64,000 nt of DNA from Kiritimatiellia bacterium (GCA_040767085.1 JAXGPF010000004.1:288001-352000), one strand, 5' to 3'; counted from the stretch's first letter, positions 10,627 to 39,081 are shown. Program-made: numbers and translations. Notes: generated from the letters alone by a model not told the origin.

Positions 10627-12912
10627 ATGCCGCGCAATCCCTCCCTGCGACAACGCTTGACCGCCCTGATGGCCGCCGCTTTCATGGCGGCCATCCTGCC
10701 GGCGGCCGCCGCGCCGGTGACTCCCGACACCGCGCGCGCCGCCGCCGCCGGCTGGCTGGCTCTGCTCCACAACCCGCTGCGCGCCTTGCCAAACCGCGCA
10801 GTGCAGTCCGTGCACCTGCACCGCGCGGCGGATGGGTCGCCGCTGGTTTACGAAGCGCGTCTGCAGCCCGCCGGCTTTCTACTGGTTCCGGTGGACGACG
10901 GATTGGAACCGGTCTTAGCGTTCGCCGCGCGCGGCAATTTCGACCCGTCGCCCGCGCATCCGCTGGGCGCGCTGGCAGCCGGCGACCTGGCGGGCCGCAT
11001 GGCCGCGCTGCGCCTTCAATCGGCCGCCGGCCGCCGCCAGACCAACCGGCGGAAATGGGATTGTTTGATCGCGCAGCGGCGGGCCGGCATCGCCGCCGTG
11101 TCCGACGAACGCGTGCCGCCGCTGGTGCAAACCGCCTGGGACCAGATGGGTGTCGGCGGCGCGTTGTGCTACAATTACTGGACCCCCGACAATTATCCTT
11201 GCGGCTGCCTGGCAACTGCCCTGGCGCAGTTGATGCGCTACCACCGTTATCCTTTCATTGGCGTCGGCACGCCGTCCTTCGCCATCCGCGTCAACGGCGA
11301 GGAACAAACCCGGACCTTGATGGGCGGCGACGGCCTGGGCGGCCCGTACGTCTGGGATTGGATGACGCTCGCTCCAACCGCCGCCACGCCGGTGACCAAC
11401 CGGATGGAAATCGGCGCGCTCTGCCACGATATTGGCGTAGCCGCCGGATCACACTATGACACCTGGGCCACGGGCGCCGACCTCTTAGCAGGCACGGACG
11501 CGCTCCGCGGCACTTTTTATTACAGCCAGGTGATTGACGGCTTCAACGATAATGCCGACATTACCGCGGCCCTGCCCGCCATGCTCAATCCCGGCCTGGA
11601 CGCCGGACTGCCGTCAGTGCTGGGGATTTTCTCCTCCGACAGCGGCCACGCGGTGCTCTGCGACGGCTACGGTTATGCCGCCGGCACGCTTTACCATCAC
11701 CTGAACCTGGGCTGGGGCGCGTCGCTCGCCGCGGATAATGCCTGGTATGCCCTGCCCACCGTGGATACTTCCGCACTCGATTATAATGTCATCCGTATCT
11801 GCGCGTATAATATTTTTACCCACGGCGCGGGCGAAATCATCAGCGGCCGGATCACGGATTCCTACGGCCTCCCCCTGGCCGACGCCGCCCTGACCATCGC
11901 CATTCATGACGGCCCTACCCTGACGGCGACCTCCAGCAGCCGCGGTATTTACGCCTTCGTCCCCGTCCCCTCCAACCGCGCGGCCGATCTTTACGCCGCC
12001 AAGGCCGGTTACCGCTTCACCCCCCGGACGGTCCGCACCGGCGCGTCCCAAAGCGATGGCATTACCTGCGGCAACCTGTGGAACGTGGATTTCACCGGCT
12101 GGCTTTCCAACCTGCCCGTGCCGGCGGAATATGACGGCGACGGCCGCGCCGACCCCGCCTGGTATGACGAATCAACCGGCTTCTGGAAAGTCTGGCAATC
12201 CGCCCGGGATTACGAGGTCATTACTTTCCATTTCGGCGGACCGGGCTGGATGGCCGTCCCCGCCGACTACGATGGCGACGGCCTGGCCGATCCCGCCATC
12301 TACCACACCGCCGCCGGCCAATGGATGGTCCTGCGATCCAGCGATGAACACCGCCTGCTGGCTACTCAAGCGCCTTTCGGCGGACCGGGCTGGATGGCCG
12401 CCCCCGCCGACTACGATGGCGACGGCCGCGCCGACCCCGCCATCTACCAGGCCGCCGCCGGCGCCTGGCAGGCATTGCTCTCCAGCGAGAATTACTTCCC
12501 GCGAGCCCCCCAGGCAACCTGCGGCGGGCCAGGCTGGATGCCGGTCCCCGCCGATTACGATGGCGACCGACGCGCCGACCCCGCCGTGCATCAAGCGCCA
12601 GCCTGGCGGGTGCTGCTTTCCGGCGATTATTACCAGCCGATCAGCGCGGCATTTGACGAGGGTGACGCCATTCAGGCCGTGCCCGCCGATTACGATGGCG
12701 ACGGCAAAGCCGATCCGGCGGTTTTCCAGCCTGCCGCCGGCCAGTGGATTATCCACCGTTCATCCGAGAATTACCGCCGTCTGGCGATTCCCTTCGGCGG
12801 CGCCGGCCAGGCGGCGGCGCCGGCAGATTACAACGGAGACGGCCGGGCGGACCTTGGGCTGTATGCCATCAACGATGATTCCTGGCAGACGCTGGAAGTT
12901 GACCGCCGGTAA
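10627..12912 (+). CDS. Secreted C10 (streptopain-like) cysteine peptidase with prodomain, Ig-like domain and six FG-GAP-like repeats
   Basis: Signal peptide; PLVQTAWDQ; catalytic GCLATALAQLM and GHAVLCDGY; YHHLNLGWG; six PA(D/E)Y(D/N)GD..AD repeats at the C-terminus. Confidence 0.88.
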   Translation: MPRNPSLRQRLTALMAAAFMAAILPAAAAPVTPDTARAAAAGWLALLHNPLRALPNRAVQSVHLHRAADGSPLVYEARLQPAGFLLVPVDDGLEPVLAFAARGNFDPSPAHPLGALAAGDLAGRMAALRLQSAAGRRQTNRRKWDCLIAQRRAGIAAVSDERVPPLVQTAWDQMGVGGALCYNYWTPDNYPCGCLATALAQLMRYHRYPFIGVGTPSFAIRVNGEEQTRTLMGGDGLGGPYVWDWMTLAPTAATPVTNRMEIGALCHDIGVAAGSHYDTWATGADLLAGTDALRGTFYYSQVIDGFNDNADITAALPAMLNPGLDAGLPSVLGIFSSDSGHAVLCDGYGYAAGTLYHHLNLGWGASLAADNAWYALPTVDTSALDYNVIRICAYNIFTHGAGEIISGRITDSYGLPLADAALTIAIHDGPTLTATSSSRGIYAFVPVPSNRAADLYAAKAGYRFTPRTVRTGASQSDGITCGNLWNVDFTGWLSNLPVPAEYDGDGRADPAWYDESTGFWKVWQSARDYEVITFHFGGPGWMAVPADYDGDGLADPAIYHTAAGQWMVLRSSDEHRLLATQAPFGGPGWMAAPADYDGDGRADPAIYQAAAGAWQALLSSENYFPRAPQATCGGPGWMPVPADYDGDRRADPAVHQAPAWRVLLSGDYYQPISAAFDEGDAIQAVPADYDGDGKADPAVFQPAAGQWIIHRSSENYRRLAIPFGGAGQAAAPADYNGDGRADLGLYAINDDSWQTLEVDRR

Positions 12913-15687: not shown

Positions 15688-16602
15688 TTATTTGGCCGGA
15701 TGGACGGTCATGCCCTTGTCGGGCTTGCCGGAAATGACTTCACAATAGCTGATCTTTTCCTTGACGGAAGCAACCTTGATCTGGCCGGCCTGCTTCAATT
15801 CCGTGTCCAGCACCTCGCCGGTGTCATCGTCCACCAGGGTCTCCACCGCGCCGACATCAAACACCTGGCCGACTTCCACGCCCTCGCGCGTGCCGCGGTT
15901 GATAATGACCTTGTCGCCAGCCTTGATGACCGAACCTTCCCAGGGAATACTTTCAAGCTGCTTTTCCAGATATTCCACCGCCTGCACCACCGCATTCTCG
16001 CAGGCCTTGCCCACATTGTCCTTCTTAAAACCATCCGCATTGCCGCCAAAGGCTGATCCGCTATAGCCAATATTCAATCCACGCCGGCCGGCCTGCCCGA
16101 CCACCTTGGTGGAGGACTTGACCTGGCCGGTGGTGGAATCAACAATATAAATGGTGATATTTACTTCCGCCTTGTCCTTGGCGCCGCCGAGGGAAAAACC
16201 CTTGAAACTGATCCCGCCCCCGCCGCCGGTGGTGCTGTCCTGCACATGCGTCACCTCGCCCTTGACCAGCAACTGCGCGGGCGTCATCTGCCCGGTTTTG
16301 GGCGCCTTTTTGCCGCCGGCTACCCGGCCGGACGCCGCTAAATCCTGCTCCAACATGGCTTCGCCGCGCATATCCTTCTCACCCAGCACCACAAACTTGC
16401 CGGAGGCCTGCAAGGCATCCGTCAGAATCGAACCGAAGGCATCGCCGATTTCCCACTGCCCATGCCAGCCGGCCCGATTTTCAAATTTGGCAACACTGAT
16501 GGTGTAACGCAGATTCCCGGTGGCGCTGAAAACCTGGGACGCGAACAACCCTACCGCCGCCAGCAATGCCATCCGCCCAGCCATCACGATTCGTGTCTGC
16601 AT
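15688..16602 (-). CDS. Secreted CsgG/HfaB-family protein with FlgT-like C-terminal beta domain
   Basis: Signal peptide; ISVAKFEN...LTDALQASGKFVVL...EQDL...AQLLVKGEVT...IVDSTTGQV (CsgG-like); VIINRG..EGV..G..F.V...L.D.DTGEVL (FlgT-C-like); GGAGG RBS. Confidence 0.8.
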   Translation of the reverse strand: MQTRIVMAGRMALLAAVGLFASQVFSATGNLRYTISVAKFENRAGWHGQWEIGDAFGSILTDALQASGKFVVLGEKDMRGEAMLEQDLAASGRVAGGKKAPKTGQMTPAQLLVKGEVTHVQDSTTGGGGGISFKGFSLGGAKDKAEVNITIYIVDSTTGQVKSSTKVVGQAGRRGLNIGYSGSAFGGNADGFKKDNVGKACENAVVQAVEYLEKQLESIPWEGSVIKAGDKVIINRGTREGVEVGQVFDVGAVETLVDDDTGEVLDTELKQAGQIKVASVKEKISYCEVISGKPDKGMTVHPAK

Positions 16603-16807
16603 AATGCCTCCCATGCCTTTCAAACGACGATAACAATGGCCTCAATTCCCACGTTACTATACTTCTATATGGCAAAATTGTTTTTAAAAGTCAATATGCA
16701 AACAGGAAACGGCAATGGCCATGTTCTTATTTTTAGCGATTTTGCGGGCGGTACGGGGGTCAACCGGCTATGTTTTAGAAATTTAATCAGTTAAGGACGT
16801 TGACTTA

Positions 16808-27512: not shown

Positions 27513-27708
27513 CTGCGCCACGCGTAGCCCAACGGGCGAATTGAAAACCAGTTCCCATGGGCGCAGAAGAGCCGTGAAAACATTATACATTGCAAACTCT
27601 TTCGAGAAGCCCATGCTTCGTTGACCTGTGGTCAACTACGCAGGGCACGCTTCGCCCTCTGGCCTCCGCCGTGGCTGCGCCACGCGTAGCCCAACGGGCG
27701 AAGCGTGG
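27513..27708. repeat. REP-like repeats downstream of tRNA-Ser, including an exact 28-bp direct repeat
   Basis: CTGCGCCACGCGTAGCCCAACGGGCGAA at 27513-27540 and 27675-27702; CTTCG-TTGACC-tgt-GGTCAA-CTACG unit at 27616-27640. Confidence 0.8.
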
Positions 27709-27793
27709 CGGAAGGGGTGGGAGTCGAACCCACGGTCCCCGAGAGGACGCCGGTTTTCAAGACCGGTGCTTTAGACCACTCAGCCACCCTTCC
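27706..27793 (-). tRNA. tRNA-Ser(TGA)
   Basis: GGAAGGG acceptor, CT-TGA-AA loop, long variable arm, GGTTCGACT, CCA; 88 nt. Confidence 0.97.
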
Positions 27794-27973
27794 CTCTCCC
27801 GCAAAATTTTTATTTCCCGCGTGACTTTTCCGTCTGCAAATTGCACAATCAGCATTCAAAAGGAAGCGGAATTTCCGGGGACGCCCGGCGCGGCAAGCCC
27901 GCGCGGTGTTGGAATCGCCGGCAAACCGGCGCCGCAAGCGCCCAGCCGCAGCCACAAGCAAGGAAAGGATAAC

Positions 27974-28669
27974 ATGAGCTTGAATATTGTGCAACAAATT
28001 GATGACCGTGTCGCCGTGCGCAACGTGCTGATCAGCGCCTGGGACAAGACCGGGCTCGAAGACCTGGCGCGGAACCTGGCGGAGATCAATCCCGGCCTGA
28101 AAATTTATTCCACCGGCGGCACCTTTAAAGCCCTGCAGACGGCCCTGGGCCCGGATCGCGCCGCGCGCAACCTGGCCCAGGTATCCGCTTACACCGGCCA
28201 GCCGGAAATGCAGGGCGGTTTGGTGAAAACCCTGGATTTCAAAATTTACCTCGGGCTGCTGAGCGAAACCTACAATCCGGACCATGCCCGCGACTTGCAG
28301 CGCCTCCAGGCCCTGGCGATTGACATGGTGGTGGTGAACCTCTACCCGTTCGCCCGCGTGGTCGCCGAGCCCGGCGCCACGCCGGAACAGGCGCGCACGC
28401 ATATCGATATCGGCGGCCCTTGCATGATCCGCGCCGCCGCCAAGAATTTCCTGCGGGTGGCCGCCGTCACGCAACCCGGCGACTATGGGCCCATCATCCA
28501 GGAATTGCGGGAGAATCGCGGCGCCATCGGATTACAAACGCGCTTTGAACTGGCGCGCAAGGCCTTTGCGCACACGGCGGAATACGACCGCCACATCGCC
28601 GGGTACCTCCAGCAATGCGCATTCGAGCAGGTCAAGGCGGGGTACCGATGCGGCAATGGCGGCAACTAA
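27974..28669 (+). CDS. purH: Stand-alone IMP cyclohydrolase (PurH N-terminal domain)
   Basis: LISAWDKTGL, STGGT, GQPEMQGGLVKTL, VVVNLYPF, IDIGGP.MIRAAAKN, KAF.HTA.YD; own RBS and stop. Confidence 0.9.
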   Translation: MSLNIVQQIDDRVAVRNVLISAWDKTGLEDLARNLAEINPGLKIYSTGGTFKALQTALGPDRAARNLAQVSAYTGQPEMQGGLVKTLDFKIYLGLLSETYNPDHARDLQRLQALAIDMVVVNLYPFARVVAEPGATPEQARTHIDIGGPCMIRAAAKNFLRVAAVTQPGDYGPIIQELRENRGAIGLQTRFELARKAFAHTAEYDRHIAGYLQQCAFEQVKAGYRCGNGGN

Positions 28670-28784
28670 AAGACCTGCATCACGGATTCAGGGGAAAATG
28701 CCGTCAGCAAATCGCGCCGCGTTCGCGGCGCAACGGATTTAAACAGCCGGCCCTTGCCGGCATGAACATATAAGGAAATAAACC

Positions 28785-30038
28785 ATGAGCGCTCCGGATT
28801 ACAAAAAAGCCTACAAAACCATCATGGACGACCATTTCACGCCGCAACTGGAAATCAGTTTCATCCAGGACGGCCAGCGCCAGACGCTTTATTACGAGAA
28901 AGCCGTCTGGCGGATTGACGGCGTGGAAAAAGGACTGCGCTACGGCGAGAACCCCGGCCAGGAAGCCGCGCTCTACCGCCTGGTCAACGGCAACCTCGCC
29001 CTGGGCACAGTCCAGTCCATCCAGCCCGGTCGTTACCTGGCGTCTGACGCCGAACTGCTGCAATCGGGCAAACATCCCGGCAAGACCAATCTGACCGACG
29101 TGGACAGCGCCTTGAATATTCTGCGTTACCTGATGGACGCGCCCTGCGTGGCAATCGTCAAGCACAACAATCCCTGCGGCGTGGCGCGCGCCGGCACCCT
29201 GGCGGAAGCCTATCAGCGCGCCAATGCCGCCGACATGGTAGCCGCCTTCGGGGGCGCGATTGTGGCCAACCGCCCCATGGACCGCGACACGGCCGAGCTG
29301 ATCGCCCAGCAATACGCCGAGGTGGTCGCGGCCCCGGAATTCGGACCGGGCGTCCTGGAAATCTTCGCGCGGAAGAAAAACCTGCGGGTCATGCGCGTAG
29401 CCAACATCGGCCGGCTGGCGGAATATGTTGGCGCGCGCGTGGTGGATTTCCGGGCGTTGATGGACGGCGGCCTCGTGGCGCAATGGTCATTCCAGCCCGT
29501 CACCCGCGCGCCGGCCCAGTTCCTGCCTGCAACGGCCACATATAAGGGCAAGGAATATAAAATCAACCGGCAACCCACGGAGCAGGAAGCCGCCGACCTG
29601 GTATTCGGCTGGCTGATCGAATGCGGCGTCACCAGCAACTCGGTGATCTATGTCAAAAACGGGGTGACCGTCGGCATCGGCACCGGCGAGCAGGACCGCG
29701 TGGGCGTGGCTGAAATTGCCCGGGACAAAGCCTACCGCAAGCTGGCCGACCGGCTGTGCCGCGAAAAATCCGGCATGCCGTACAATAACCTGCAGGATGC
29801 CGGGCAGCGCCGGGAGATTGACGCCGAAACCGCGCGGCAGCGCGGAGGGCTGCCGGGCGCCTGCATGGTGTCAGACGCCTTTTTCCCGTTCCGCGACGGC
29901 GTGGATGTGGGCTTACGCGAAGGCATCACCGCCGTCATCCAGCCCGGCGGCTCGGAGCGTGATTTCGAATCCATCGAGGCCTGCAACGAAGCCAACGCCG
30001 CCATGGTCTTCACCGGTCAGCGTTGTTTCCGACATTAA
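28785..30038 (+). CDS. purH: Stand-alone AICAR transformylase (PurH C-terminal domain)
   Basis: LRYGENP.Q.A, VKHNNPCG, AFGG, SN, SDAFFPF.DG, IQPGGS.RD, FTG.R.FRH. Confidence 0.92.
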   Translation: MSAPDYKKAYKTIMDDHFTPQLEISFIQDGQRQTLYYEKAVWRIDGVEKGLRYGENPGQEAALYRLVNGNLALGTVQSIQPGRYLASDAELLQSGKHPGKTNLTDVDSALNILRYLMDAPCVAIVKHNNPCGVARAGTLAEAYQRANAADMVAAFGGAIVANRPMDRDTAELIAQQYAEVVAAPEFGPGVLEIFARKKNLRVMRVANIGRLAEYVGARVVDFRALMDGGLVAQWSFQPVTRAPAQFLPATATYKGKEYKINRQPTEQEAADLVFGWLIECGVTSNSVIYVKNGVTVGIGTGEQDRVGVAEIARDKAYRKLADRLCREKSGMPYNNLQDAGQRREIDAETARQRGGLPGACMVSDAFFPFRDGVDVGLREGITAVIQPGGSERDFESIEACNEANAAMVFTGQRCFRH

Positions 30039-30088
30039 TTATTGCTTGTCCCGCCCTGGAATTTCTATATTATTTTGATGCCAGCAAT

Positions 30089-30703
30089 ATGAGCATACAC
30101 CAGAAAATCCGGACCGCGCTTTGCGTTTTGATCCCGGGCAGCTTGATCATGCTGCAGGGTTGCTGCTGCTTCGGCGGGCGCAAGTCCGCCGAAACCGTCA
30201 AGTATGAGGCCCACCCCCGGATTTCGCTGACACCGGAATGCCGGCAAATCAAGAAAGTGAGCGTCATGCCCTTCCGCGCCGCTACGGCAATTGCCGGCGA
30301 ATCCGTCGCCGACATGTTCGTCACGGAAATCATCAAGGAACAGATTTACGAAGTGGTTGAGCGCAGTCAGATTGACAAGGTGCTCAGCGAAAGCGAGGTG
30401 GCGCTGGCGGGCCTCACCAGTTCCAAGGCCGCGGAAATGGGCTCGATGCTGGGCGCGGACGCCGTGATCATCGGCACGGTGGATGAATACAGCATGATGC
30501 CGTCCAAGGACATGCATTTCGCCGTCGTCGGGATCAATGCCCGGATGATTGACTGTAAATCCGGCAAGATTTTATGGAGCATTGACCTGGCCCAGCGCGC
30601 GGGCTCCACGTCCGTCACCGTGCCGGAGCATGCCCGCGCGGTCGTGCGGGCCATGATCGAGGCGCTCCGCGCGGAATTGGCCAAAACCATGGGCGCATAT
30701 TGA
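30089..30703 (+). CDS. CsgG/TolB_N-like lipoprotein
   Basis: Lipobox LQGC; V.VMPF...YEVVERSQIDKVL.E...G.MLGADAVIIGTV...ARMIDCKSGKILW. Confidence 0.8.
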   Translation: MSIHQKIRTALCVLIPGSLIMLQGCCCFGGRKSAETVKYEAHPRISLTPECRQIKKVSVMPFRAATAIAGESVADMFVTEIIKEQIYEVVERSQIDKVLSESEVALAGLTSSKAAEMGSMLGADAVIIGTVDEYSMMPSKDMHFAVVGINARMIDCKSGKILWSIDLAQRAGSTSVTVPEHARAVVRAMIEALRAELAKTMGAY

Positions 30704-31854
30704 AAAACCGGCTCGCCAGCACGACATGGTCTGCTGTCCGCCTGACGCTATGGCCGCTGGTCCCGCTGCTGGCGGTAATGGCCGCCGGCTGCGCCACCGC
30801 GCCGCCGCTGCCCGCCGCCAAGCCCGCCGCGGAACCGCTCCGCACTACGCCGCCGCCCCGGGTCATCGTCCTGCTGAATGAAAAGGACGCCGGCGGCGCG
30901 GCCGCCGCGGAAGCGGAGTCGGCCGCCGTCAATTACCTGGTCGCCCATAACATCCCCGTGGTGGACCGGGCGGTCGTGCAGTCCAACCAGGAGAAAATCC
31001 AGGCGCTGCTGGCGCTGGCGGGCGACGACCAGGGCGCCGCCGCCATCGGCATGCAGTTCGGCGCCGATGTCATTCTCCGCGGCGAGGCGGAAGCCCGGCA
31101 GACCGCGGCCGGCATCCGCGGGAGCAAGTTGAACAGTTACCAGGGCAAGCTGGATCTCCGGGCGATTGACGCGGATGACGGGCAGATTCTTGCCGCCGCC
31201 GCCGCCGCCGTGCCGGCAATCGCCATGGACGCGGTCAATGGCTCCGCCCAGGCCTTGCAGTCCGCCGCCGCGCGCGCCCTGCCCGAGTTGCTGCCGAAAC
31301 TGCTCGCGGCCTGGGACACCAAGGCTGAAAACAAGGTCCGGCATCCGGGCCGGACCGGCATGTCGCTCTCCGCGGCATTGCGCCCGGCCGATGCCGATTC
31401 CGCCGCGGTGGAACTGCCCAAGCCGCCCCGCGGGCGCAAAACGCCGGTGGCAGCCATCTGGCGGCTGACCGCCCAGACGGGCGCGCAGCCGGAATGGATG
31501 GAGCCGCTGACGGAAACGCTGTACGCGGTGCTGTCGCAAAGCGGCTGGTTCCGCCTGGTCACCCGGGAGGACATGGAAAAAATCATGGCCGAGCATAACA
31601 TCCAGCTCAGCGACATCTGCGACACCACCGAACGGGCGATCGAATTAGGCAAAATCCTGAGCGCGCAGAAAATGCTGATCGGGACCGTCAGCAAACTGGG
31701 CGGCACCTACCAGGCGGTGGTCAAACTGGTGGACGTCGAAACCGGCGAAATTGAAAGCGTCGGCCAGGCGGATGCCAAGGGCACGATGGATGTCCTCTTT
31801 CAACTGGTGCGCCAGGCCAGCGCCGATCTTCTGGAACACGCGGGGCAGCGGTAA
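30700..31854 (+). CDS. Lipoprotein with two CsgG/FlgT-middle-like domains
   Basis: Lipobox AAGC; first domain GADVILRGEA...LRAIDADDGQIL; second domain FRLVTREDMEKIM.E...GKILSAQKMLIGTV...KLVDVETGEI. Confidence 0.72.
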   Translation: MKNRLASTTWSAVRLTLWPLVPLLAVMAAGCATAPPLPAAKPAAEPLRTTPPPRVIVLLNEKDAGGAAAAEAESAAVNYLVAHNIPVVDRAVVQSNQEKIQALLALAGDDQGAAAIGMQFGADVILRGEAEARQTAAGIRGSKLNSYQGKLDLRAIDADDGQILAAAAAAVPAIAMDAVNGSAQALQSAAARALPELLPKLLAAWDTKAENKVRHPGRTGMSLSAALRPADADSAAVELPKPPRGRKTPVAAIWRLTAQTGAQPEWMEPLTETLYAVLSQSGWFRLVTREDMEKIMAEHNIQLSDICDTTERAIELGKILSAQKMLIGTVSKLGGTYQAVVKLVDVETGEIESVGQADAKGTMDVLFQLVRQASADLLEHAGQR

Positions 31855-31971
31855 GAATTTTGCTTGCGTTGGCGGCCGGCGGCGTTAAACTGTAAACATC
31901 TTAAGGATGCCCATTTGCCAGCACAACGGTTTGGACGATCGCAATTCAACCCCGAGGACAGGAGAACGGTC

Positions 31972-33063
31972 ATGCAAAAGTCAGCGCGGGCGGTGTTGTG
32001 GGCGGCGGTATTGGCGGCCGCGGGCGCCTGGGCCCAGGACAAGGAGCAGGTAACGGTCATCCGGCAGGGCGCCGGCGGCGAAGTGCAGATCATTTCCAAG
32101 GAACAAACTGCGCCGGCGGAAACGGCCCCCACGGACGCCGCGCGCGAAGCGGCGCGGGCCGTGGCCGCCGACGACACGCCGCGCAAGGCGCGCGTGATGG
32201 TGATCCCGGCGATTTTCGCCCAGGAGCAACGCCGGCGTGTGGACCGCGAGTTTTTCGAGCGGTTCAACATCACCGATCCGGGTGTAATTGAAAACCCGGG
32301 GTACACCAGTTACCTGATTGACGCGCTGGTGAATGTCCGCAAATTCGACATGCTGGAGCGCGAGGAACTGCGGCAGGTGGTCAAGGAACTGGATTTCGGG
32401 GAAAGCGACTACGTGGATGTGGAAAAAGTCGTTAAAATCGGCAACATGGTCGGCGCGGACTACATGATCATCCCCACCATCCGCTACCTGGAAGTTGACC
32501 GCGAAACCAAAAACGTGCCGTATGTCGGCGGCCAGCAAATCGCCATCCGCTGCAAATTCGCCACCAACGTGCGCACGGTGGACGTGGCCTCCGGCAAGAT
32601 CATCGCCTCCGGCGTGCGCGAAGTGGAAAAGAAGAAACGCCAGCGGGCCCAGGACTCCCAGCGCATCCTCGTCATGGACACCGTGAGCGAGTGCTACAAG
32701 GAATCCGCCATGCTGGATGCCGCCAAGATCGTGGATGTGGCCTACCCCATCCGCATCATGAGCATTGACGGCAAGACGGTCATGCTCAACCGGGGCCAGG
32801 GCGCGATCCTGCCGGGCGAAGTCCTGAAAGTTTATGCCGCCGGCGAAGTCATGATCGACCCTGACACCAAGGACAACCTGGGCTACCATGAAACTTACCT
32901 GGGCTCGGTCAAGGTCACCGAAGTTGACTTGAAAACCAGCAAGGGCACAATTATTGACCAGCCCGGAACAATCGAGCGGTTGGCTATTTGCCGGCGCACC
33001 GAACAGCCTACACTGGCTGACCCGCGCCTGCAGCCGCCGACGGCGGCGCCCAAAATCGACTGA
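31972..33063 (+). CDS. Secreted CsgG/HfaB protein with FlgT-like C-terminal domain
   Basis: Signal peptide; LIDALVNVRKFDMLEREEL..VVKE, GADYMI, RTVDVASGKI; VMLNRG...MIDPDTKDNLG; AGGAG RBS. Confidence 0.8.
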   Translation: MQKSARAVLWAAVLAAAGAWAQDKEQVTVIRQGAGGEVQIISKEQTAPAETAPTDAAREAARAVAADDTPRKARVMVIPAIFAQEQRRRVDREFFERFNITDPGVIENPGYTSYLIDALVNVRKFDMLEREELRQVVKELDFGESDYVDVEKVVKIGNMVGADYMIIPTIRYLEVDRETKNVPYVGGQQIAIRCKFATNVRTVDVASGKIIASGVREVEKKKRQRAQDSQRILVMDTVSECYKESAMLDAAKIVDVAYPIRIMSIDGKTVMLNRGQGAILPGEVLKVYAAGEVMIDPDTKDNLGYHETYLGSVKVTEVDLKTSKGTIIDQPGTIERLAICRRTEQPTLADPRLQPPTAAPKID

Positions 33064-33199
33064 GCCGGCAACCGGAGACTTGCGCCGGGCCCGGCCGCGC
33101 GGCGCCGCCTGTGCCCCGGCCGGCAAACATGCCTGGAACTGGAACCGGCTTAATGGCCGGGCCTTGGACCGGGCGGCCATCTGAAGGAAGGATGTTAAG

Positions 33200-33631
33200 A
33201 TGACGGCAAAATTATTGGGCATGATGGCGCTGGCATTCGCGCTGGCCGGGCTGGCCGGCGGCTGCCGCAACCCGGTGACCTCCGCCGGCGCCACGATGGA
33301 GAGCTACGCCGGCAACCAGGTCAAGGTCAACTCGCGGGTTTTCGGCAAGCATTTCCGCGTGGCCAACGTGGCGACAGCCAGGGGCCAGAACCAGTTGCTG
33401 AAGACCACCGTCACGCTGGAAAACCTCCAGCAATTTTCCATGGCTTTCGAATACCGGTTCCGCTGGGTGGACGCCGAAGGCATTGAAATCGCCACCGGCA
33501 CAACGCTTTGGATTTCCAAGATCGCCGCGGCGCGCGAAATGGTGCTGATGACCGCCATCGCGCCCACGAAACTGGCGGAGGATTTTATTCTGGACGCCCG
33601 TTTTGTTTATCCCAGCACGCGCTGGAAATGA
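33200..33631 (+). CDS. YcfL/DUF1425-like lipoprotein
   Basis: Lipobox AGGC; L.N......FEYRFRW.D.EG.EI......W............AIAP motif. Confidence 0.8.
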   Translation: MTAKLLGMMALAFALAGLAGGCRNPVTSAGATMESYAGNQVKVNSRVFGKHFRVANVATARGQNQLLKTTVTLENLQQFSMAFEYRFRWVDAEGIEIATGTTLWISKIAAAREMVLMTAIAPTKLAEDFILDARFVYPSTRWK

Positions 33632-33677
33632 TACGGTCGCCGAGTATACGGCATTCAAGCGACAAGGAGCAATCAGC

Positions 33678-34310
33678 ATGCGGAAATCTATGTATTGGAC
33701 GCGGGCGGCGGGCGGCCTGGCCGCGCTGGCGCTGTTAGCCGGCTGCCGGTCGGTGGACATACCCCGGACCGGTTACGTCTCGCCCGAGGAAGAAGGCGTC
33801 ATGACCATCGCCCTGGATGACCACGATTACGACCTGGCCGCCGAAGGCATCGCCCGCGAGATGTTCATGCGCGGACTGCCGAAAGATTATGTCGTCGTCC
33901 TGGGCCCGGTGGATACCCGCGAATGCCCCTATGACGTGCGGGTGATCCAACTGCAGAAATCGCTGCAAGTGATTTTTAACCGCGAAGGGACGTTAAAATT
34001 CCTGACAGCGGCGGACGCCATGGCCGGCGGCACGGCGGTGGATGAAATCTACAAGATCATTCAATACAACTGGCTGAACAGCAACCCCATGGACCTGGAG
34101 GATTTGCAAACCTTCGGTCAACTGGCCCGCATCAACGGTATTCTGTTCGGGCGCGTCTCATCCCTGGAACGCAACCTGCCGGGGGGCGGCCGAGAAATCA
34201 GCTACCGCTTTGTCTGGGAACTCACCAATACCAAAACCGGCGTGCTGGACATCTCCCATGAACAGCGCATCCGCAAAAACATATCACGGGACATGCTGCT
34301 GAGGCAATGA
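33678..34310 (+). CDS. LpoB/YcfM-like lipoprotein
   Basis: Lipobox LAGC; Y.SP.....T..LD.HD...A; ILFGRVSS...Y.F..EL.N.KTG....S; follows the ycfL-like gene as in ycfL-lpoB loci. Confidence 0.7.
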   Translation: MRKSMYWTRAAGGLAALALLAGCRSVDIPRTGYVSPEEEGVMTIALDDHDYDLAAEGIAREMFMRGLPKDYVVVLGPVDTRECPYDVRVIQLQKSLQVIFNREGTLKFLTAADAMAGGTAVDEIYKIIQYNWLNSNPMDLEDLQTFGQLARINGILFGRVSSLERNLPGGGREISYRFVWELTNTKTGVLDISHEQRIRKNISRDMLLRQ

Positions 34311-34727
34311 TGCTTAAACGGTTTTTATTTTCCGCGGCTTTGTCGCTCGGCGCGGCGCTGGCCGGACTCACCGGCTGCCGCTCGCATTCCGGACCGCCGC
34401 CCGCCCCGCCGCCGGCCTGGACGCTTTCCCCTAAACCGGCTGACAGCGTTTACTGCTATTTTGTCGGGACTTCGACCGGCCAGTCCGCGCCCGCCGCGGC
34501 GCGCGAGGCCGCTTACCAGGACGCCTTGCGCCAGATATCCCGGCACATCGTCAGCGAGGCCGGCCTGGGTCTGGCCGCCTTGCCGCCGGGCGGCATCCTC
34601 CTGCCGCTGGAGGGAGCGGAGATCATGCCGGGCTGCTTCTATCAAAGGCGCTTACCGGGGGTATGTGCAGGTGAGTTTCCCGATCGCCGGGAAGCGCAAA
34701 GTTATCGAACGGCTGCGCCAGCCGTAA
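34307..34727 (+). pseudogene. LPP20-like lipoprotein, probably frameshifted at ~34643
   Basis: Lipobox LTGC; P.W...P..D..Y.YFVG.......AR..A...A...I (LPP20-like). The +1 frame tail KGAYRGYVQVSFP aligns with NGGTRCWLQVSLP of paralog 37831. Confidence 0.65.
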
Positions 34728-34737
34728 GGGGGTCAAA

Positions 34738-35316
34738 ATGAAATCGGCAGCGAAATGGCTGGTGGTACTGGGTCTGGGCATGGCTTGCCTTGCGGCGGGG
34801 GCGGCCGAGTTAGGCCGGTCGCAGCCGGTAGCCGTGGTCAATGACCGGCCCGGCGGCAGCGGCAAAGCGGCCGGGCTGCAACTGGCGCTTTTCGCGCCGA
34901 TCCAGGTGTTCCCGGAAAACTACAACATTTACGGGCTGCGCCTCAACCTGATTTACGGGATTAACCAGGACCTGCGCGGCCTGGACTTGGGTATGTTCAA
35001 TGTCGGGCGTGGTTTGATGGAAGGGCTGCAGGTCGGATTAGCCAATCGGACGGCGGAATTGTCCGGGATGCAGCTTGGCCTGCTGAACTTCACCGGCGCC
35101 TCCGAGGGCGGATTTCAACTGGGACTGATGAATTACGCGCATGAATTCGCCGGACTGCAGTTGGGACCGATCAATTTCGCCAAGGACGTCAATGGCGCAC
35201 AAATCGGCGTCATCAACATCTGCGAAACCACCGCCGGCGCCCAGATTGGCCTGATCAATATCATTTCCCAAAGCGATTGGCTGGTCTTCTGTCCGCTCGT
35301 TAACGCGCAATTCTGA
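34738..35316 (+). CDS. Secreted LA_2272-like repeat protein (GxQxGxxN repeats)
   Basis: Signal peptide; GLRLNLIYG.N....GLDLG followed by six G.Q(V/L/I)G..N repeats; terminal P.VN..F. Confidence 0.78.
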   Translation: MKSAAKWLVVLGLGMACLAAGAAELGRSQPVAVVNDRPGGSGKAAGLQLALFAPIQVFPENYNIYGLRLNLIYGINQDLRGLDLGMFNVGRGLMEGLQVGLANRTAELSGMQLGLLNFTGASEGGFQLGLMNYAHEFAGLQLGPINFAKDVNGAQIGVINICETTAGAQIGLINIISQSDWLVFCPLVNAQF

Positions 35317-37241
35317 TGAAGACTTCCCTGCCATGCCGGTTTCTGCTCTGCGCCCTGGCGCTGGCGGCGCACAACGGCCGCGCGCTGACGCCGGATGAGG
35401 CGGGCGTGCCGAAGCGGCTCCAGCCGACCATCATGGGCACGGTGGACCTCAACGAGGGCGGCACCAGGACCCTCAGCATGTCGCGATATGCCTCCACCTG
35501 GCTGGAGTCCAACGAAAAAGTCAGCGGGACGCTTATCCGTTCCGAAAGGGCCAACTGGAATGTCTTCGGGCCGGGATCCACCGTAAACCCCGGTGAAGAT
35601 ACGGTTACCATTAAAGCCACCAGAGCCGGCCAGGGCTATATCCAGGGGTATCGTTATCTTTATTATATGGATAACGGCGTGGAGCGGAGAAACATCCTCA
35701 TCCAGATCTGGCTGCTGAAGGTGCATCCCCTGACCGATGGATCTTCCAACAATGCTCCGACCGGCTCGCCCGGCGGGGCATGGCCGACTGAGAAGCCGGA
35801 CATCCCCCGGGCCGTCATCAAGGGGCGGGCGGTGATGCGTGGAACGGACACCGGTGTGCCTGGCGCATATATTGAACTGATCGGCGCCAGAACCGGCACG
35901 TTGCGCACCAACTGGGAAACTGGCGCCGACGGCGGATTTAACATTAAGGCGGACAACATGCTGTCCGCGGACCGGTACGAAATTTTTATCCGCAAAGGCT
36001 CCGCCAATGCCGCCCGGGAAGATGCCGTGATGGAGGATTTATGGCCGATCCGCAGGTATTACGTGACCGTGACCCGCGACAACTGCCTGAATCTTAACCT
36101 GGGCCGGATCGAAATGGCGTCCGTCGAGGATTTATGGGGCGCGGACCGGACGGCCGGCGCCGATGCCGCCCGCCCGGAACTTGACATTACCCCCAAGGCC
36201 GGACCCGGCGCCGGCGGCGGCCAGACGACTCCATCCGGGCAGATACCCGGCGGCGGCCAAACGCCCGGATCGGCAACAGCCCCGGGCGCCGGCGGCGGTC
36301 AAGCGCCGGGAACCGGCCCAACCCCGGGCGGCGGCGGGCAACCTCCGGCGCCGCCTCAAACACCGGATGCGCCGGATGCCCCCGGCACACCCCAGCCGCT
36401 GGACGATAGTGTGCCGGTTTTAATCGCCCCCGGCGCGATCGGCGCGGCAGCGGCTGCCCAATCCCTGCAAATTGTATATAAAGGCTATGTTGAAGTAGAT
36501 TTCAACCTTAAGGCCACCATGACCTTAAAACTTGCCGGATCGGCCGTGACCGGCGAGTTATACGCGCCGCCGGTGTCCCAGCCCAATGTGCGGCTGCCGG
36601 GCGCGCGTATGCTGCTGGACGGCACGCTGGCAGGCGGCTGGGAGGATGGCGGCAGGATTACCGGGAGTTGCACCGGCCATATCCTGTGGCCGGACGGCAA
36701 GCAGGAAGAGCGCGCGGGCCAGTTTCAAATCGCAAAGGCCGGCGCGGAAATTCACTTCCGCAGCACGAAGTTTTATTATAACCACTACATTTTCGGCGCA
36801 TTGGGTATAAAATACGCCGGCGGCAATGCCGTAACCAACGCTGCCGGCACAAGCCTTAATTCCGTCTTGATCCTGATTGATGCTTCCGGCAGCATGCAGG
36901 GCGAAAAAATCAACCGGGCCAAGTCCACGGCCTGCCGGCGCATTGCCGAACTGGGGCCGGAGACCGAGTTAGCCGTGATCGCTTTCAGCGGCAATTCCCT
37001 GAAATTCCAGTTTGCGCCCATGGATGACGATGGGCGCGCGCGCGCCCAGGAAGCCGTCAATGGCGTCAGCGCCGGCGGCGGTACGCCCCTGGCCGCCGCT
37101 ATCCGCAGCGCCGGCAGTTATATACGCGGCAACGCCCGGTCGAAAAACAAGACTTTGATCATTCTATCGGACGGCGAAGAAAGCGAAGGCGGCAACCCGC
37201 CGGAGGAAATCCGCAAGCTGAACGATGTGACGGTAAATTAA
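35316..37241 (+). CDS. Secreted modular protein with Gly/Pro linker and C-terminally incomplete VWA domain
   Basis: Signal peptide; Ig/carboxypeptidase-regulatory-like domain (IKGR...GVPGA.IEL...TGADGGF); four GGGQ repeats; MIDAS DASGSM, GGTPL, LSDG; stops about 20 aa after the DG. Confidence 0.8.
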   Translation: MKTSLPCRFLLCALALAAHNGRALTPDEAGVPKRLQPTIMGTVDLNEGGTRTLSMSRYASTWLESNEKVSGTLIRSERANWNVFGPGSTVNPGEDTVTIKATRAGQGYIQGYRYLYYMDNGVERRNILIQIWLLKVHPLTDGSSNNAPTGSPGGAWPTEKPDIPRAVIKGRAVMRGTDTGVPGAYIELIGARTGTLRTNWETGADGGFNIKADNMLSADRYEIFIRKGSANAAREDAVMEDLWPIRRYYVTVTRDNCLNLNLGRIEMASVEDLWGADRTAGADAARPELDITPKAGPGAGGGQTTPSGQIPGGGQTPGSATAPGAGGGQAPGTGPTPGGGGQPPAPPQTPDAPDAPGTPQPLDDSVPVLIAPGAIGAAAAAQSLQIVYKGYVEVDFNLKATMTLKLAGSAVTGELYAPPVSQPNVRLPGARMLLDGTLAGGWEDGGRITGSCTGHILWPDGKQEERAGQFQIAKAGAEIHFRSTKFYYNHYIFGALGIKYAGGNAVTNAAGTSLNSVLILIDASGSMQGEKINRAKSTACRRIAELGPETELAVIAFSGNSLKFQFAPMDDDGRARAQEAVNGVSAGGGTPLAAAIRSAGSYIRGNARSKNKTLIILSDGEESEGGNPPEEIRKLNDVTVN

Positions 37242-37246
37242 CCGTT

Positions 37247-37825
37247 ATGAAAATTTTACGTCCCATGATGATGTGCGCAGCGGCGGCGCTGGTTTGCGCG
37301 CAGGCCGGCGCGCAGGATGCCGCACCCGGACCGGCGAGCCGGGATTTAATCAACATTGTCGCCGTCGGCTATGACATTGAAAACAATCCCAAGGCCCAGC
37401 AAATGCTCCAGGATATGGCGCAGGCCGCCCGCGATGCCGGCGCCGGCGGCACCGTGATCATGGCCGGGCAGGACGAGGCACAACTGGACCAGGCCATGCA
37501 AAAGGCCATGACCATCGCCACCCAGCCGCCGGCGCCGGCATACCGGCTGGAACTCAAGACCGCTTCCGCCGCGCCGGGGGCCAGGATCGTGGTGGTGCAT
37601 TCCGATTTCCCGGCAACGAACCGCGAGGCCTGGATTGCCTTTTATGAAAAGGCCGGCGACCGCGACCAGGACTATCTGTCTTATACCTTTCTGGCCAACC
37701 TGAACGATCGGACATACGATGTCACGGCCCCTGACAAGCCCGGCGCCGAGTATCATTTCCGCCTTTTTTTAACCAAGGAATACGATTGCGCCGCCCGCAG
37801 TGAACCAGTCCATATCGCCGAATAA
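37247..37825 (+). CDS. Secreted protein: VWA C-terminal-like segment plus Ig-like domain
   Basis: Own signal peptide (AQAGA|Q); INIVAVGYDI...AQQMLQDMAQA...GG....A.QDEAQLDQAM; then AWIAFY...YLSY...APDKPG.EY.FRLF beta-sandwich. Confidence 0.7.
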   Translation: MKILRPMMMCAAAALVCAQAGAQDAAPGPASRDLINIVAVGYDIENNPKAQQMLQDMAQAARDAGAGGTVIMAGQDEAQLDQAMQKAMTIATQPPAPAYRLELKTASAAPGARIVVVHSDFPATNREAWIAFYEKAGDRDQDYLSYTFLANLNDRTYDVTAPDKPGAEYHFRLFLTKEYDCAARSEPVHIAE

Positions 37826-37830
37826 TCTGC

Positions 37831-39081
37831 ATGAAGTTTTTCCGCCTGTTTTTGATGAGCCTTGCACTGCTGGCGGGTTGGCCGGCAGTTCCAGTTGGCG
37901 CCGCGCCGGATTACCGTCCGCTCTGGATCGAGCAGCCTAAAAGCGACGACAGCATTTACCTTTACCGCGTCGGCACCGCCGCCGCCGGATCGGAAACCGC
38001 GGCGCGCCAGGCCGCCCTGGTCCAAGCCGGCGAAATCATCCTGGATGAAATCCTCGCGCAAAGCGGCGTGCCGGAAACAGAGCGCGTTGAATTGCGCGGC
38101 GCTCTGGCGTTGCGGGATTTGACGCCGGTTCCCGACGCCGTGCATTATGCCCCTGAAAACGGCGGCACCCGGTGCTGGCTGCAGGTCAGTCTGCCGTTGC
38201 AGGAGCGCGCCCGCCTGCGGCAGGACATCGCGGCCGCCATGGAGCGCCGCCGCTTGCAGGAGGAATTCGACGCCCGCATCAACGGGCAATGGCAGGAGGG
38301 CCGGGCCGCCAGCCTGCGGGGCGAATACACCCAGGCCCTGGCGCTCTTGCGGGAGGCCGAAACCAACTTTGCCGCGGTCCATCGCCCGGCATTTGCGATG
38401 GAGGAACTGCGCCTGCTGCTGGGCGATGTGCAGCGGGAACTAGGCCGGCCCCTGGACGCGCGCGGTTACTACGAAACCGTGGCCGGACTGGCAACCGCTG
38501 AAACCTGGCAGGCGCAGGCGGCGGCGCGCCTGGCGGCGCTGCCCGATCCGCCGCGCCTATGGCCGGCGCTGACCCGTTGGCAGGACCGCGCCGCGGCGCA
38601 AGTCTGCGTATTGCAGCCGGCCGGCGATCCGGCGGCATGGTTTGGCGAACTTGCCGCGGTGCTGCACCGCGATTTTCAAGCCTGCCGGCGGGATTTGTGC
38701 GACCTGGCCCAGTGGCCGCCGGAATCCGCCGCGCAGCTTTTCATAACGCGCCAGACGGCAGCCCTGGCCGGCGCCGCCCGCGCCGCATCGGCTGGAATGG
38801 TGCTGGTGATCTACGCCCGGGGGGATGCCACCGGTGGCGGGACGCCGCCGGAAACGGGCGGACTGCGCTTCCCCGCGCCGGATATGACCGTCCAATTCAT
38901 GGTGTTGGACGCCATCGCCAATCGCATCGTATATGCCGGCGAATTCCGGGAAATGCGCGGCCGGCGCGGCAACGCGCGGCTGGCCGAACGGATTGCGTCA
39001 ATCCTGATCAACAATTACCTGGCGCCCAAATGTCCGGCGCTGGCGCCCGGGCCAGGCGGCGCGGCGGCCGGCCCCGGATAA
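37831..39081 (+). CDS. Secreted LPP20-like/TPR-like protein
   Basis: Signal peptide; P.W...P..D.S.Y.Y.VG......AR.AA N-domain; TPR-like helices (GEYTQALALL..., LLGDVQRELG....ARGYY). Confidence 0.68.
   Translation: MKFFRLFLMSLALLAGWPAVPVGAAPDYRPLWIEQPKSDDSIYLYRVGTAAAGSETAARQAALVQAGEIILDEILAQSGVPETERVELRGALALRDLTPVPDAVHYAPENGGTRCWLQVSLPLQERARLRQDIAAAMERRRLQEEFDARINGQWQEGRAASLRGEYTQALALLREAETNFAAVHRPAFAMEELRLLLGDVQRELGRPLDARGYYETVAGLATAETWQAQAAARLAALPDPPRLWPALTRWQDRAAAQVCVLQPAGDPAAWFGELAAVLHRDFQACRRDLCDLAQWPPESAAQLFITRQTAALAGAARAASAGMVLVIYARGDATGGGTPPETGGLRFPAPDMTVQFMVLDAIANRIVYAGEFREMRGRRGNARLAERIASILINNYLAPKCPALAPGPGGAAAGPG

Follow-up and report, generated by a model that had tools for sequence, protein, structure and literature searches.

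A cluster of ten genes for predicted envelope proteins lies at positions 30089-39081 of a 64,000-nucleotide stretch of DNA (the window; GCA_040767085.1, JAXGPF010000004.1:288001-352000) from a Kiritimatiellia bacterium. The class Kiritimatiellia belongs to the Planctomycetes-Verrucomicrobia-Chlamydiae (PVC) group and is represented here only by metagenome-assembled genomes (MAGs). The source genome, G000, is a MAG of 95% completeness. The ten open reading frames (ORFs) are all on the + strand and are numbered g1 to g10 by order. From g1 to g10, the junctions measure -4, 117, 136, 46, -4, -4, -1, 5, and 5 nt, so that six of the nine either overlap or are at most 5 nt long, and two are longer than 100 nt. 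A regular-expression search found a lipobox-like motif with its cysteine in g1 (LQGC), g2 (AAGC), g4 (AGGC), g5 (LAGC), and g6; the remaining five genes lack one. The N-termini of g3, g7, g8, g9, and g10 are hydrophobic and were judged by eye to be type I signal peptides. An earlier annotation made from the DNA alone (hereafter the sequence-only reading) had described ten co-oriented genes, mostly overlapping or a few nucleotides apart, whose products all carry an export signal. This description holds, with the export signals counted as five lipoboxes by regular expression and five signal-peptide-like N-termini by eye. The analysis supports the view that the ten genes are a genuine, conserved envelope cluster and not a curli, flagellar, or penicillin-binding protein (PBP) locus. 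The cluster is an expanded variant of a known, functionally unexplained module.

The first gene of the conserved core is g3 (31972-33063), which encodes a FlgT-like protein of 363 amino acids that is secreted and is not a lipoprotein. The AlphaFold2 (AF2) model of g3, built on a 37-row alignment, has a predicted local distance difference test (pLDDT) score of 79.7. It consists of an alpha/beta domain (approximately residues 71-259) and a beta domain (approximately residues 260-345), preceded by a low-confidence region (residues 1-70). In this order, the two domains resemble FlgT_M (alpha/beta) and FlgT_C (beta). The top Foldseek matches are the Vibrio LPHT ring (8z5n) and FlgT (3w1e), with E values of ~1e-14. 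Structural alignment by VIA-align gave a Z score of 14.3 for FlgT 3w1e, with 220 aligned residues and a root-mean-square deviation (rmsd) of 11.6 (model residues 71-344 to chain residues 97-354), and a Z score of 13.5 for 8z5n_0, with 233 aligned residues and an rmsd of 10.9. The large rmsd between g3 and FlgT fits a difference in domain orientation. The matches beyond FlgT, which include CsgG, PelC, LptE, TolB, PqiC, and CT253, cover only the alpha/beta domain. By profile comparison, the C-terminal beta domain is also related to the FlgT_C-like repeats of TsaP (6ve2, E 1e-8; 3jc8, E 2.7e-4). A Verrucomicrobial homologue of g3 has FlgT_C and FlgT_M matches that are only sub-threshold.

The other two core genes are g4 (33200-33631) and g5 (33678-34310). 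The former encodes a 143-residue lipoprotein of the YcfL/DUF1425/Cj0090 family. It scores 52.8 bits against the Pfam DUF1425/YcfL profile (PF07233; cut-off 28.3), which confirms the YcfL-like protein named in the sequence-only reading, and is the sole DUF1425 match in G000. The g4 family profile matches PDB entries 3o0l (E 2e-14) and 4gio (E 1.6e-7), and a table in PMC7857515 lists 4GIO as Campylobacter jejuni Cj0090. Cys22 of g4 is invariant in 41 sequences. Only 46 nt downstream of this DUF1425 gene lies g5, which encodes an LpoB-like lipoprotein of 210 amino acids. The g5 profile matches Escherichia coli LpoB (PDB 2mii) with an E value of 7e-4. The LpoB-like protein claimed earlier is therefore recovered as a weak relative and not as an equivalog, since g5 reaches 29.1 bits with TIGR02722, far below the equivalog cut-off of 110.55, and has no Pfam LpoB (PF13036) match at E<=0.1. 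In one Verrucomicrobial locus, where the set is flanked by hisF and holB, the counterpart of g5 passes the Pfam LpoB cut-off with 86.4 bits. Prediction of a complex of g3, g5, and g4 (residues 68-346, 24-210, and 23-143, with alignments) scored 0.00 in both runs and is evidence neither for nor against an interaction.

The core genes are those most constantly kept in relatives. With g3 as the query (E<=1e-30), a homologue was found in 21 of the 251 class genomes sampled, distributed over many families. A scan with one genome per species gave 80 loci, which were selected via g3 and several of which end at contig borders. Profiles of g1 to g10 were built from the fetched loci and run over all of their ORFs, and 31 Kiritimatiellia-type loci were retained after the removal of 14 that duplicate the same or near-identical contigs. 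Among these 31 loci, g3 is full-length in 29 and partial in two, g4 is full-length in 28 and partial in two, and g5 is full-length in 29 and partial in one. Next comes g10, with 19 full-length and five partial copies. Full-length g7 and g6 are present in 13 and eight loci, respectively, with no partial copies. For g2, ten full-length copies are accompanied by 15 partial ones that consist of the single C-terminal domain, and for g1 there are nine full-length and three partial copies. The least frequent are g9 (three full-length, four partial) and g8 (one full-length, three partial).

Gene order is kept together with gene content. All ten genes are found in order in the same-genus genome G002, while G003 has g1 to g8 up to a contig end and G001 has g4 to g10. 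The order g1-g2-g3-g4-g5-g6-g7-g10 is kept in four further genomes (G111, G211, G249, and the genome of locus L044), and also in G183 with g1 displaced. The g8-g9 pair is inverted in G183, lies upstream of g1 in G249, and is on other contigs in G111 and G211. An inverted g2-like gene and a displaced g7 are seen in G024, G022, and G128. Conservation of gene order in relatives had been set beforehand as a test of the proposed cluster, and the full order in G002 and the eight-gene order in several genomes answer it positively. As a separate observation, g3 is 74% identical to its orthologues in two other families (G183 and G111), compared with 56-60% in its own family (G024 and G022), and a second, diverged copy of the core is present in G003 and in the MAG that carries loci L053 and L055. 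These patterns hint at either horizontal transfer or old paralogy.

The core extends well beyond the class. The comparison covered 56 loci of other groups, namely Verrucomicrobiia/Limisphaerales, Brocadiaceae, Phycisphaerae, Binatia, Methylomirabilota, and Hydrogenedentes. Homologues of g4 and g5 accompany g3 in 53 and 38 of them, respectively. An extra gene of ~1.4 kb separates g3 from g4 in the Verrucomicrobiia-type and Brocadiaceae loci. The Phycisphaerae-type loci (L096, L099, L111, and L112) have the order g4-g5-g3 and are without this gene. Since the core is kept in such distant groups, g3-g4-g5 is an old and widely kept module. To judge from this comparison of loci, the ten-gene form is a lineage-specific elaboration of the core.

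Upstream of the core, two genes encode lipoproteins with domains of the same general type. The 204-residue product of g1 (30089-30703) has a single alpha/beta domain of the LpoB/PelC/GNA1162 type, which resembles the periplasmic domain of CsgG. The 384-residue product of g2 (30700-31854) has a C-terminal domain homologous to g1 and g5, with hhalign probabilities of 94.7% against the g1 family and 92.5% against the g5 family, both reported for this domain only. The N-terminal half of g2 is unassigned, and by eye it may be a second domain of this type. The nearest PDB sequences to g1 are GNA1162 (4hrv, E 9e-4) and PelC (9h80, E 9e-3), which are marginal matches. Weak Pfam FlgO matches are found for both g1 and g2.

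The sequence-only reading had counted g1, g2, and g3 as three CsgG-like proteins, and all of them do exceed the Pfam CsgG (PF03783) cut-off of 20.8 bits, with 60.2, 47.6, and 46.1 bits, respectively. These matches are partial. Out of 210 profile positions, g1 covers 11-159, g2 covers 35-101 (at its residues 265-333), and g3 covers 39-154. A full-length CsgG domain that includes the two transmembrane-hairpin segments, whose placement within the profile is presumed here, was found in none of the three, as judged from profile coverage for g1 and g2 and additionally from the model for g3. The g3 model has only one long hairpin (residues 164-204), which is rich in charged residues, and CsgG chains align to this model only over the periplasmic alpha/beta domain. 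The partial profile coverage, the match of g3 to FlgT as its best relative, the charged hairpin, and GNA1162 and PelC as the nearest solved relatives of g1 thus give no support to a CsgG-type beta-barrel pore. Elsewhere in the window, a stand-alone CsgG-like gene at 15688-16623 (- strand) encodes 311 amino acids and covers positions 8-207 of the 210 with 99.7 bits. Its product has Gly/Ser-rich stretches that are absent from g1 to g3, as well as a C-terminal extension that resembles the beta domain of g3 by eye. It has no PDB sequence match at E<=0.01. This gene is a more likely candidate for a true CsgG-type channel in the window. A fifth CsgG match in G000 is on contig C3.

Two genes downstream of the core, g6 and g10, are related to each other. 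The gene g6 (34307-34741) encodes an LPP20/FlgP-like lipoprotein and is frameshifted in G000. Alignment with the same-genus orthologues from G002 and G003 reveals an 11-nt deletion near 34642, and by three-frame translation the conserved C-terminal strands are out of frame and end at a TAA at 34725-34727. The apparent 4-nt overlap between g6 and g7 is caused by this deletion. An independent landfill metagenome contig of 1587 nt covers 34055-35641 with zero differences, and the deletion is therefore not an artefact of the G000 assembly. The other gene, g10 (37831-39081), encodes a secreted protein of 416 amino acids with three domains. Its AF2 model has a pLDDT of 89.4 and contains an LPP20/FlgT_N-like domain (residues 43-122), a TPR domain (140-241), and a TolB_N/LpoB/PelC-like domain (255-400). 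The first domain is modelled as beta-alpha-alpha-beta-beta. In a whole-chain Foldseek search, g10 matched FlgT (4e-4), TolB (6e-4), LpoB (2e-3), PelC (2e-3), and Helicobacter pylori HP1454 (8e-3, probability 0.60). TPR matches reach a Z score of 13.4 over residues 147-242. The two LPP20-like proteins described earlier have weak backing. No Pfam match was obtained for g6 or g10 of the window, and the g6 profile found nothing in the PDB at E<=10. LPP20 (PF02169) is matched weakly by four of eight g6 orthologues (best E 0.0067), and hhalign shows homology between g6 and the first domain of g10 (99.5%). The g10 family is not related by hhalign to the 474-residue TPR-like lipoprotein of a Verrucomicrobial locus (probability 0.6%).

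Between g6 and g10 lie a repeat protein gene and a gene pair of variable occurrence. The 192-residue secreted product of g7 (34738-35316) belongs to the LA_2272/VC2662 family. It matches the NCBIfam LA_2272_repeat model NF047436 in five stretches (76.4 bits against a cut-off of 25) and scores 52.9 bits with the VC2662_fam equivalog, whose cut-off of 140 is not reached. Six G.Q.G..N motifs are present, and the GxQxGxxN repeat noticed in the sequence-only reading is this known NCBIfam repeat. All 14 distinct rows of g7 orthologues end in phenylalanine. A terminal aromatic residue is a hallmark of targeting signals of outer-membrane beta-barrel proteins. In the Protein Atlas, g7 is represented by unnamed clusters without a model, and the literature on VC2662/LA_2272 gives the function as unknown.

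The variable accessory genes g8 (35316-37241) and g9 (37247-37825) had been read as a pair of VWA proteins. For g8, which encodes a secreted protein of 641 amino acids, this is correct. Its C-terminal residues 517-639 match Pfam VWA_2 (49.4 bits, cut-off 27) and VWA (42.4 bits), the metal-site motif DASGS can be read from its sequence, and the VWA match ends at about position 131 of the 174-position profile. The 192-residue secreted product of g9 is not called VWA by any tool, and its profile finds nothing meaningful in the PDB. It consists of a short N-terminal alpha/beta part and a C-terminal domain of 95 residues (approximately 96-192; window positions 37532-37822), which is identified by alignments as a SKICH-like repeat domain. 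Relatives of this domain include proteins with a precomputed SKICH match (PF17751) and others with SLH or subtilase domains. As observations on the pair itself, the VWA match in g8 and its orthologues (L124, L125, and L127) always stops at approximately position 125-131 of 174, at the end of the protein, and g9 has a signal peptide of its own, after which comes a beta-alpha-beta-alpha stretch. The pair may represent a VWA domain split over two separately exported polypeptides, in which the N-terminal part of g9 would supply the end that g8 lacks. The arrangement of the two genes is kept in at least seven genomes. When g8 and g9 were compared by BLASTP with a protein of L019 in which VWA and SKICH are fused, the similarity was confined to the SKICH-like domain. 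The idea that the pair is cargo of the system finds no support in its distribution, since among the 31 related loci full-length g8 occurs in one and full-length g9 in three, and in other genomes the pair is found elsewhere.

The SKICH-like domain family is large, with 3183 representative clusters at E<=1e-3, often as tandem repeats. G000 has a single real copy. Among the 251 class genomes, the domain is found in 12, of which 11 are among the 21 genomes with g3, and in the twelfth, G001, contig ends interrupt the cluster. Of the 19 matches in the class sample, ten are on the cluster's own contig. The genomes behind this co-occurrence are related and not independent of one another. Beside the core in other genomes (L019, L020, L028, L044, and L119-L126), the domain is fused N- or C-terminally to papain-like proteases, clostripain-caspase fusions, and beta-propeller proteins. 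It is also present there in an integrin-type VWA protein and in a protein with a weak peptidoglycan-binding-domain match. We considered the domain as a private sorting tag and rejected this idea in view of the 3183 clusters, the tandem repeats, and the one real copy in G000. The sequence data give a lead that the SKICH-like domain may be a docking-type module.

The genome lacks the partners with which the best-known relatives of these proteins work. In G000, no match was found to FlhA, FlgI, or flagellin, none to CsgF (PF10614) or the curlin repeat (PF07012), with csgE not searched, and none to the GT51 transglycosylase (PF00912) or the UB2H domain (PF14814). The control genomes responded in every one of these searches. 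The lack of curli, flagellar, and PBP genes that had been reported for the window thus extends, for these seven families, to the whole genome. In the class sample, FlgI is found in 24 of the 251 genomes and in four of the 21 that carry the cluster (17 are without it), and GT51 is found in 91 of the 251 and in nine of the 21 (12 are without it). The FlgI-less and GT51-less carriers indicate INDEPENDENCE from flagella and class A PBPs, as the module depends on neither. The lack of flagellar, curli, and class A PBP genes argues against the strict functions of FlgT, CsgG, and LpoB, respectively. Apart from the cluster, GT51 was not found in 160 of the 251 class genomes, and many members of the class may build their wall without bifunctional PBPs.

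A purH-type gene ends 50 nt before the cluster start, and a convergent alpha/beta-hydrolase gene lies 3 nt past the cluster end. The rest of the 64-kb window consists of metabolic and housekeeping genes, and no genes for a secretin, polysaccharide export, pili, or peptidoglycan synthesis were found in it. A promoter scan gave one weak promoter-like site upstream of g1 (30046-30073), and terminator-like sites were not above the shuffled expectation (16 versus 11.9, standard deviation 4.4). Short contigs identical to parts of g1/g2, g2, g3, g6, g8, and g10 are present in two metatranscriptome runs of one study. These contigs are a weak sign of cluster expression, as such libraries may hold DNA, and they cannot show co-transcription. 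The DNA was also located in anaerobic digester sludge. The purH region itself (27590-30038) is divided into two ORFs in different frames, one with MGS and the start of AICARFT (27590-28669) and one with the remaining AICARFT (28785-30038), and the same split is present in the same-genus G002. Further upstream, the gene at 10627-12912 (+ strand) encodes a 761-residue secreted protein with a peptidase C10 (streptopain-like) domain and its inhibitor-like prodomain, as well as a CarboxypepD_reg domain and FG-GAP repeats.

Several characterized systems contain relatives of these proteins. One of them is an envelope lipoprotein operon of Campylobacter and Helicobacter. In C. jejuni, cj0089-cj0090-cj0091 form a co-regulated lipoprotein operon, and the outer-membrane protein Cj0091 aids adherence and chick colonization (PMC3100323). 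H. pylori HP0018 is described as a TPR lipoprotein homologous to Cj0089, whose gene in other Helicobacter species is often beside that for the LpoB homologue HP1457, and loss of HP0018 leads to chains of outer-membrane vesicles and less helical cells, while the protein co-immunoprecipitates with AmiA and MltD (PMC11394524). The likeness to our cluster lies in g4, which matches Cj0090 (4gio), and in g5, as Cj0091 and HP1457 are described as LpoB homologues (PMC11394524). By domain type, a TPR-containing partner and an Lpp20-type protein are present in both settings, with HP1457 encoded beside lpp20 (HP1456). The products in C. jejuni are likewise envelope lipoproteins, whose mechanism is not known (PMC3100323). 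Unlike that operon, the present cluster has a FlgT-like gene and two further LpoB/PelC-like lipoprotein genes that precede the pair, its TPR protein g10 is without a lipobox and has two extra domains, and its host has no detected flagellar genes. The sequence links to the Campylobacter and E. coli modules were checked for g4-Cj0090 and g5-LpoB only.

In E. coli K-12, ycfL (DUF1425) is directly upstream of lpoB, followed by thiK and nagZ, which is the same order as g4-g5. However, E. coli LpoB activates PBP1b via UB2H, and G000 has no detected GT51 or UB2H. The E. coli locus also shows no FlgT-like neighbour within 7 kb, and g5 scores 29.1 bits against the 110.55 that defines the LpoB equivalog. 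The description of the cluster as undescribed must accordingly be narrowed, because the g4-g5 pair corresponds to the known and partly studied ycfL-lpoB of E. coli and cj0090-cj0091 of C. jejuni, although the function of the unit is not known. Among YcfL/LpoB/CsgG papers, no work on such a cluster was apparent from the title or the opening of the abstract, with supplements outside this scope, and among the matches listed for DUF1425/YcfL none contains the term 'DUF1425'.

A further parallel is the H-ring of the Vibrio flagellar motor. In it, FlgT forms a 26-fold ring and the lipoproteins FlgP and FlgO form 58-fold rings, which are reported to anchor the motor to the outer membrane with no pore formed (bioRxiv 10.64898/2025.12.02.691832). 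A common fold is reported for Lpp20 (HP1456), FlgP, and FlgT, and an Lpp20-like domain makes up the N-terminus of HP1454 (PMC11756786). Like the H-ring and the basal disk of Campylobacter and Helicobacter, our cluster brings together a FlgT-like protein (g3), LpoB/FlgO-type proteins (g1, g2, and g5), and putative LPP20/FlgP-like proteins (g6 and g10). As in the H-ring, the FlgT-type component is not a lipoprotein, in contrast to FlgO and FlgP (bioRxiv 10.64898/2025.12.02.691832). The differences are that G000 has no detected FlhA, FlgI, or flagellin, that g3 has no clear FlgT_N domain and no Pfam FlgT match, and that rings are a proposal here.

Other characterized proteins share individual domains with the cluster. 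PelC is a dodecameric lipoprotein ring of the Pel exporter. PelC and GNA1162 are nearest to g1 by sequence, g3 aligns with PelC at a Z score of 12.0, and g10 matches PelC in Foldseek (2e-3), but no PelB-like porin or polysaccharide synthesis genes were found in the window. CsgG has a periplasmic alpha/beta domain in common with g1, g2, and g3. It differs from them in that they cover its profile only partially and in that g3, the only one of the three modelled, has no membrane-hairpin-like segment and is not a lipoprotein; CsgF and curlin were also not found. TsaP, a ring protein associated with the type IV pilus secretin, has repeated FlgT_C-like domains that resemble the C-terminal beta domain of g3. 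In contrast to TsaP, g3 has no LysM domain, and no secretin gene is present in the window.

We propose, with about even confidence, that the cluster encodes a periplasmic scaffold of lipoproteins that is anchored to the outer membrane and is similar to the H-ring of Vibrio. One alpha/beta fold of lipoprotein type recurs five or more times in the cluster, which also encodes a beta sandwich of the YcfL type, two domains that resemble LPP20, one TPR domain, the repeat protein, and the VWA protein. An H-ring-like list of parts in genomes without flagellar genes favors the scaffold reading, and the alternative raised in the sequence-only reading, that the cluster scaffolds the envelope, fits the evidence. 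The products would form a multi-protein periplasmic assembly whose lipoprotein anchors attach it to the outer membrane from the inside. Its core would be the ancient three-gene module, with g3 as the FlgT-like scaffold, g4 as the YcfL/DUF1425/Cj0090-like component, and g5 as the LpoB/Cj0091-like component. The PelC/GNA1162-like g1 and g2, the LPP20/FlgP-like g6 (now broken) and g10, the repeat protein g7 with its C-terminal phenylalanine, and the movable g8-g9 pair would be additions of the lineage. By analogy with FlgT, FlgO, and FlgP in the H-ring and PelC in the Pel exporter, the proteins may oligomerize into rings or a lattice under the outer membrane. Such an assembly could stabilize or space the envelope, and the TPR, SKICH, and VWA domains may be docking sites for other exported proteins. 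We infer the oligomerization, location, physical association, and function of the products. We consider a CsgG-type channel, a flagellar function, and the activation of a class A PBP to be unlikely roles of the cluster.

Several points weigh against the scaffold. The TolB_N/LptE-like fold is common in functionally unrelated lipoproteins such as LptE, PqiC, and TolB, and the fold alone therefore says little about function. No confident FlgT_N domain is found in g3, which also has no Pfam FlgT match at E<=0.1. The LPP20 membership of g6 and g10 depends on weak matches. Since g6 is frameshifted, at least one component is dispensable or has been lost in G000. The patchy distribution (21 of 251 genomes) implies an accessory function and not a core function of the envelope. 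The composition outside the core varies, which is also what loosely associated modules would give, and any oligomer or contact between two products is so far a prediction.

This last pattern leads to the possibility that there is no single system, and that separately inherited modules (g3-g4-g5; g6, g7, and g10; and the VWA/SKICH pair) are simply adjacent. Conservation over the 31 loci is indeed layered, g8-g9 is inverted in G183, moved upstream of g1 in G249, and placed on other contigs in G111 and G211, and the g2-like gene is inverted and g7 displaced in G024, G022, and G128. We nevertheless regard such chance adjacency as rather improbable. The eight-gene order persists in G111, G211, G249, and the genome of L044, where protein identity is 45-78%. 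Even L032-L035, which are distant paralogous loci with approximately 30% identity, have g10-like genes with the core, and no gap within g5-g6-g7-g8 or g8-g9-g10 exceeds 5 nt. If the genes do act together, they could instead regulate peptidoglycan-remodelling enzymes, with g4, g5, and g10 modulating amidases, lytic transglycosylases, or pairs of SEDS proteins and class B PBPs in the way that LpoB modulates PBP1b, and with the other products as accessories. This role, which is compatible with a scaffold, is unlikely, although it deserves consideration. It draws on the relationship of g5 to LpoB, with the Verrucomicrobial counterpart that passes Pfam LpoB at 86.4 bits, and on the adjacency of ycfL and lpoB in E. 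coli K-12, followed there by thiK and nagZ. HP0018 is reported to co-precipitate AmiA and MltD, and its loss to alter cell shape (PMC11394524). Moreover, a 577-residue protein encoded next to the core in L044 has a weak PG_binding_2 match, which passes the whole-protein cut-off with no single stretch passing alone. On the other hand, neither GT51 nor UB2H was found in the 95%-complete G000, and because 12 of the 21 cluster-bearing class genomes are without GT51, the known LpoB mechanism cannot be the conserved one. No gene for a peptidoglycan enzyme lies in or beside the cluster within the window, and g5 is far under the LpoB equivalog cut-off.

The reading as a CsgG-like oligomeric pore in the outer membrane or as a new secretion system, with the VWA and repeat proteins as its exported or displayed substrates, appears very improbable. 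It would account for the three Pfam CsgG matches above the cut-off, for the export of all products, and for the conserved terminal phenylalanine of g7, which is shared with outer-membrane beta-barrel proteins. SKICH-domain proteins, including papain-like and clostripain/caspase proteases, VWA proteins, and beta-propeller proteins, also lie beside the core, and within the class sample the domain occurs only in cluster-bearing genomes (12 of 12). However, the CsgG matches in the cluster are partial, compared with coverage of 8-207 for the separate gene at 15688-16623, and the only long hairpin of the g3 model has many charged residues, with CsgG aligning to the periplasmic domain only. PelC and GNA1162, which g1 resembles, are themselves not channels. 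CsgF and curlin repeats were not found in G000, and g8 and g9 are seldom within the cluster. The SKICH-like domain, with 3183 representative clusters and tandem repeats, is too widespread for a dedicated secretion tag.

The scaffold reading can be carried further in a more speculative direction. FlgT-, FlgO/LpoB-, and FlgP/LPP20-type proteins could constitute a flagellum-independent system of discs or rings beneath the outer membrane in PVC bacteria and others. Its role as a scaffold would be the older one, and it would later have been recruited to the H-ring, to the basal disk, and perhaps to the LpoB-PBP1b pair. In Kiritimatiellia, it would also be a docking platform for SKICH-domain enzymes, such as cysteine proteases, and for VWA proteins. 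We consider this wider scenario a long shot.

The YcfL-LpoB pair is kept from E. coli to PVC bacteria, and only the activation of PBP1b by LpoB in E. coli is understood. The analysis provides defined groups of orthologues and a testable three-gene core that is open to genetics in Campylobacter or in cultivable Verrucomicrobia. In G000 and in 12 of the 21 cluster-bearing relatives, the pair is present without a detectable class A PBP, and it is joined to a FlgT-like protein in genomes that lack flagellar genes. This suggests that the YcfL, LpoB, and FlgT-like families have a more general role in the envelope. Should the products indeed assemble into rings anchored to the outer membrane, the cluster would bear on the origin of flagellar accessory discs and on how the space beneath the outer membrane is organized in bacteria without tethers of the Braun lipoprotein type.

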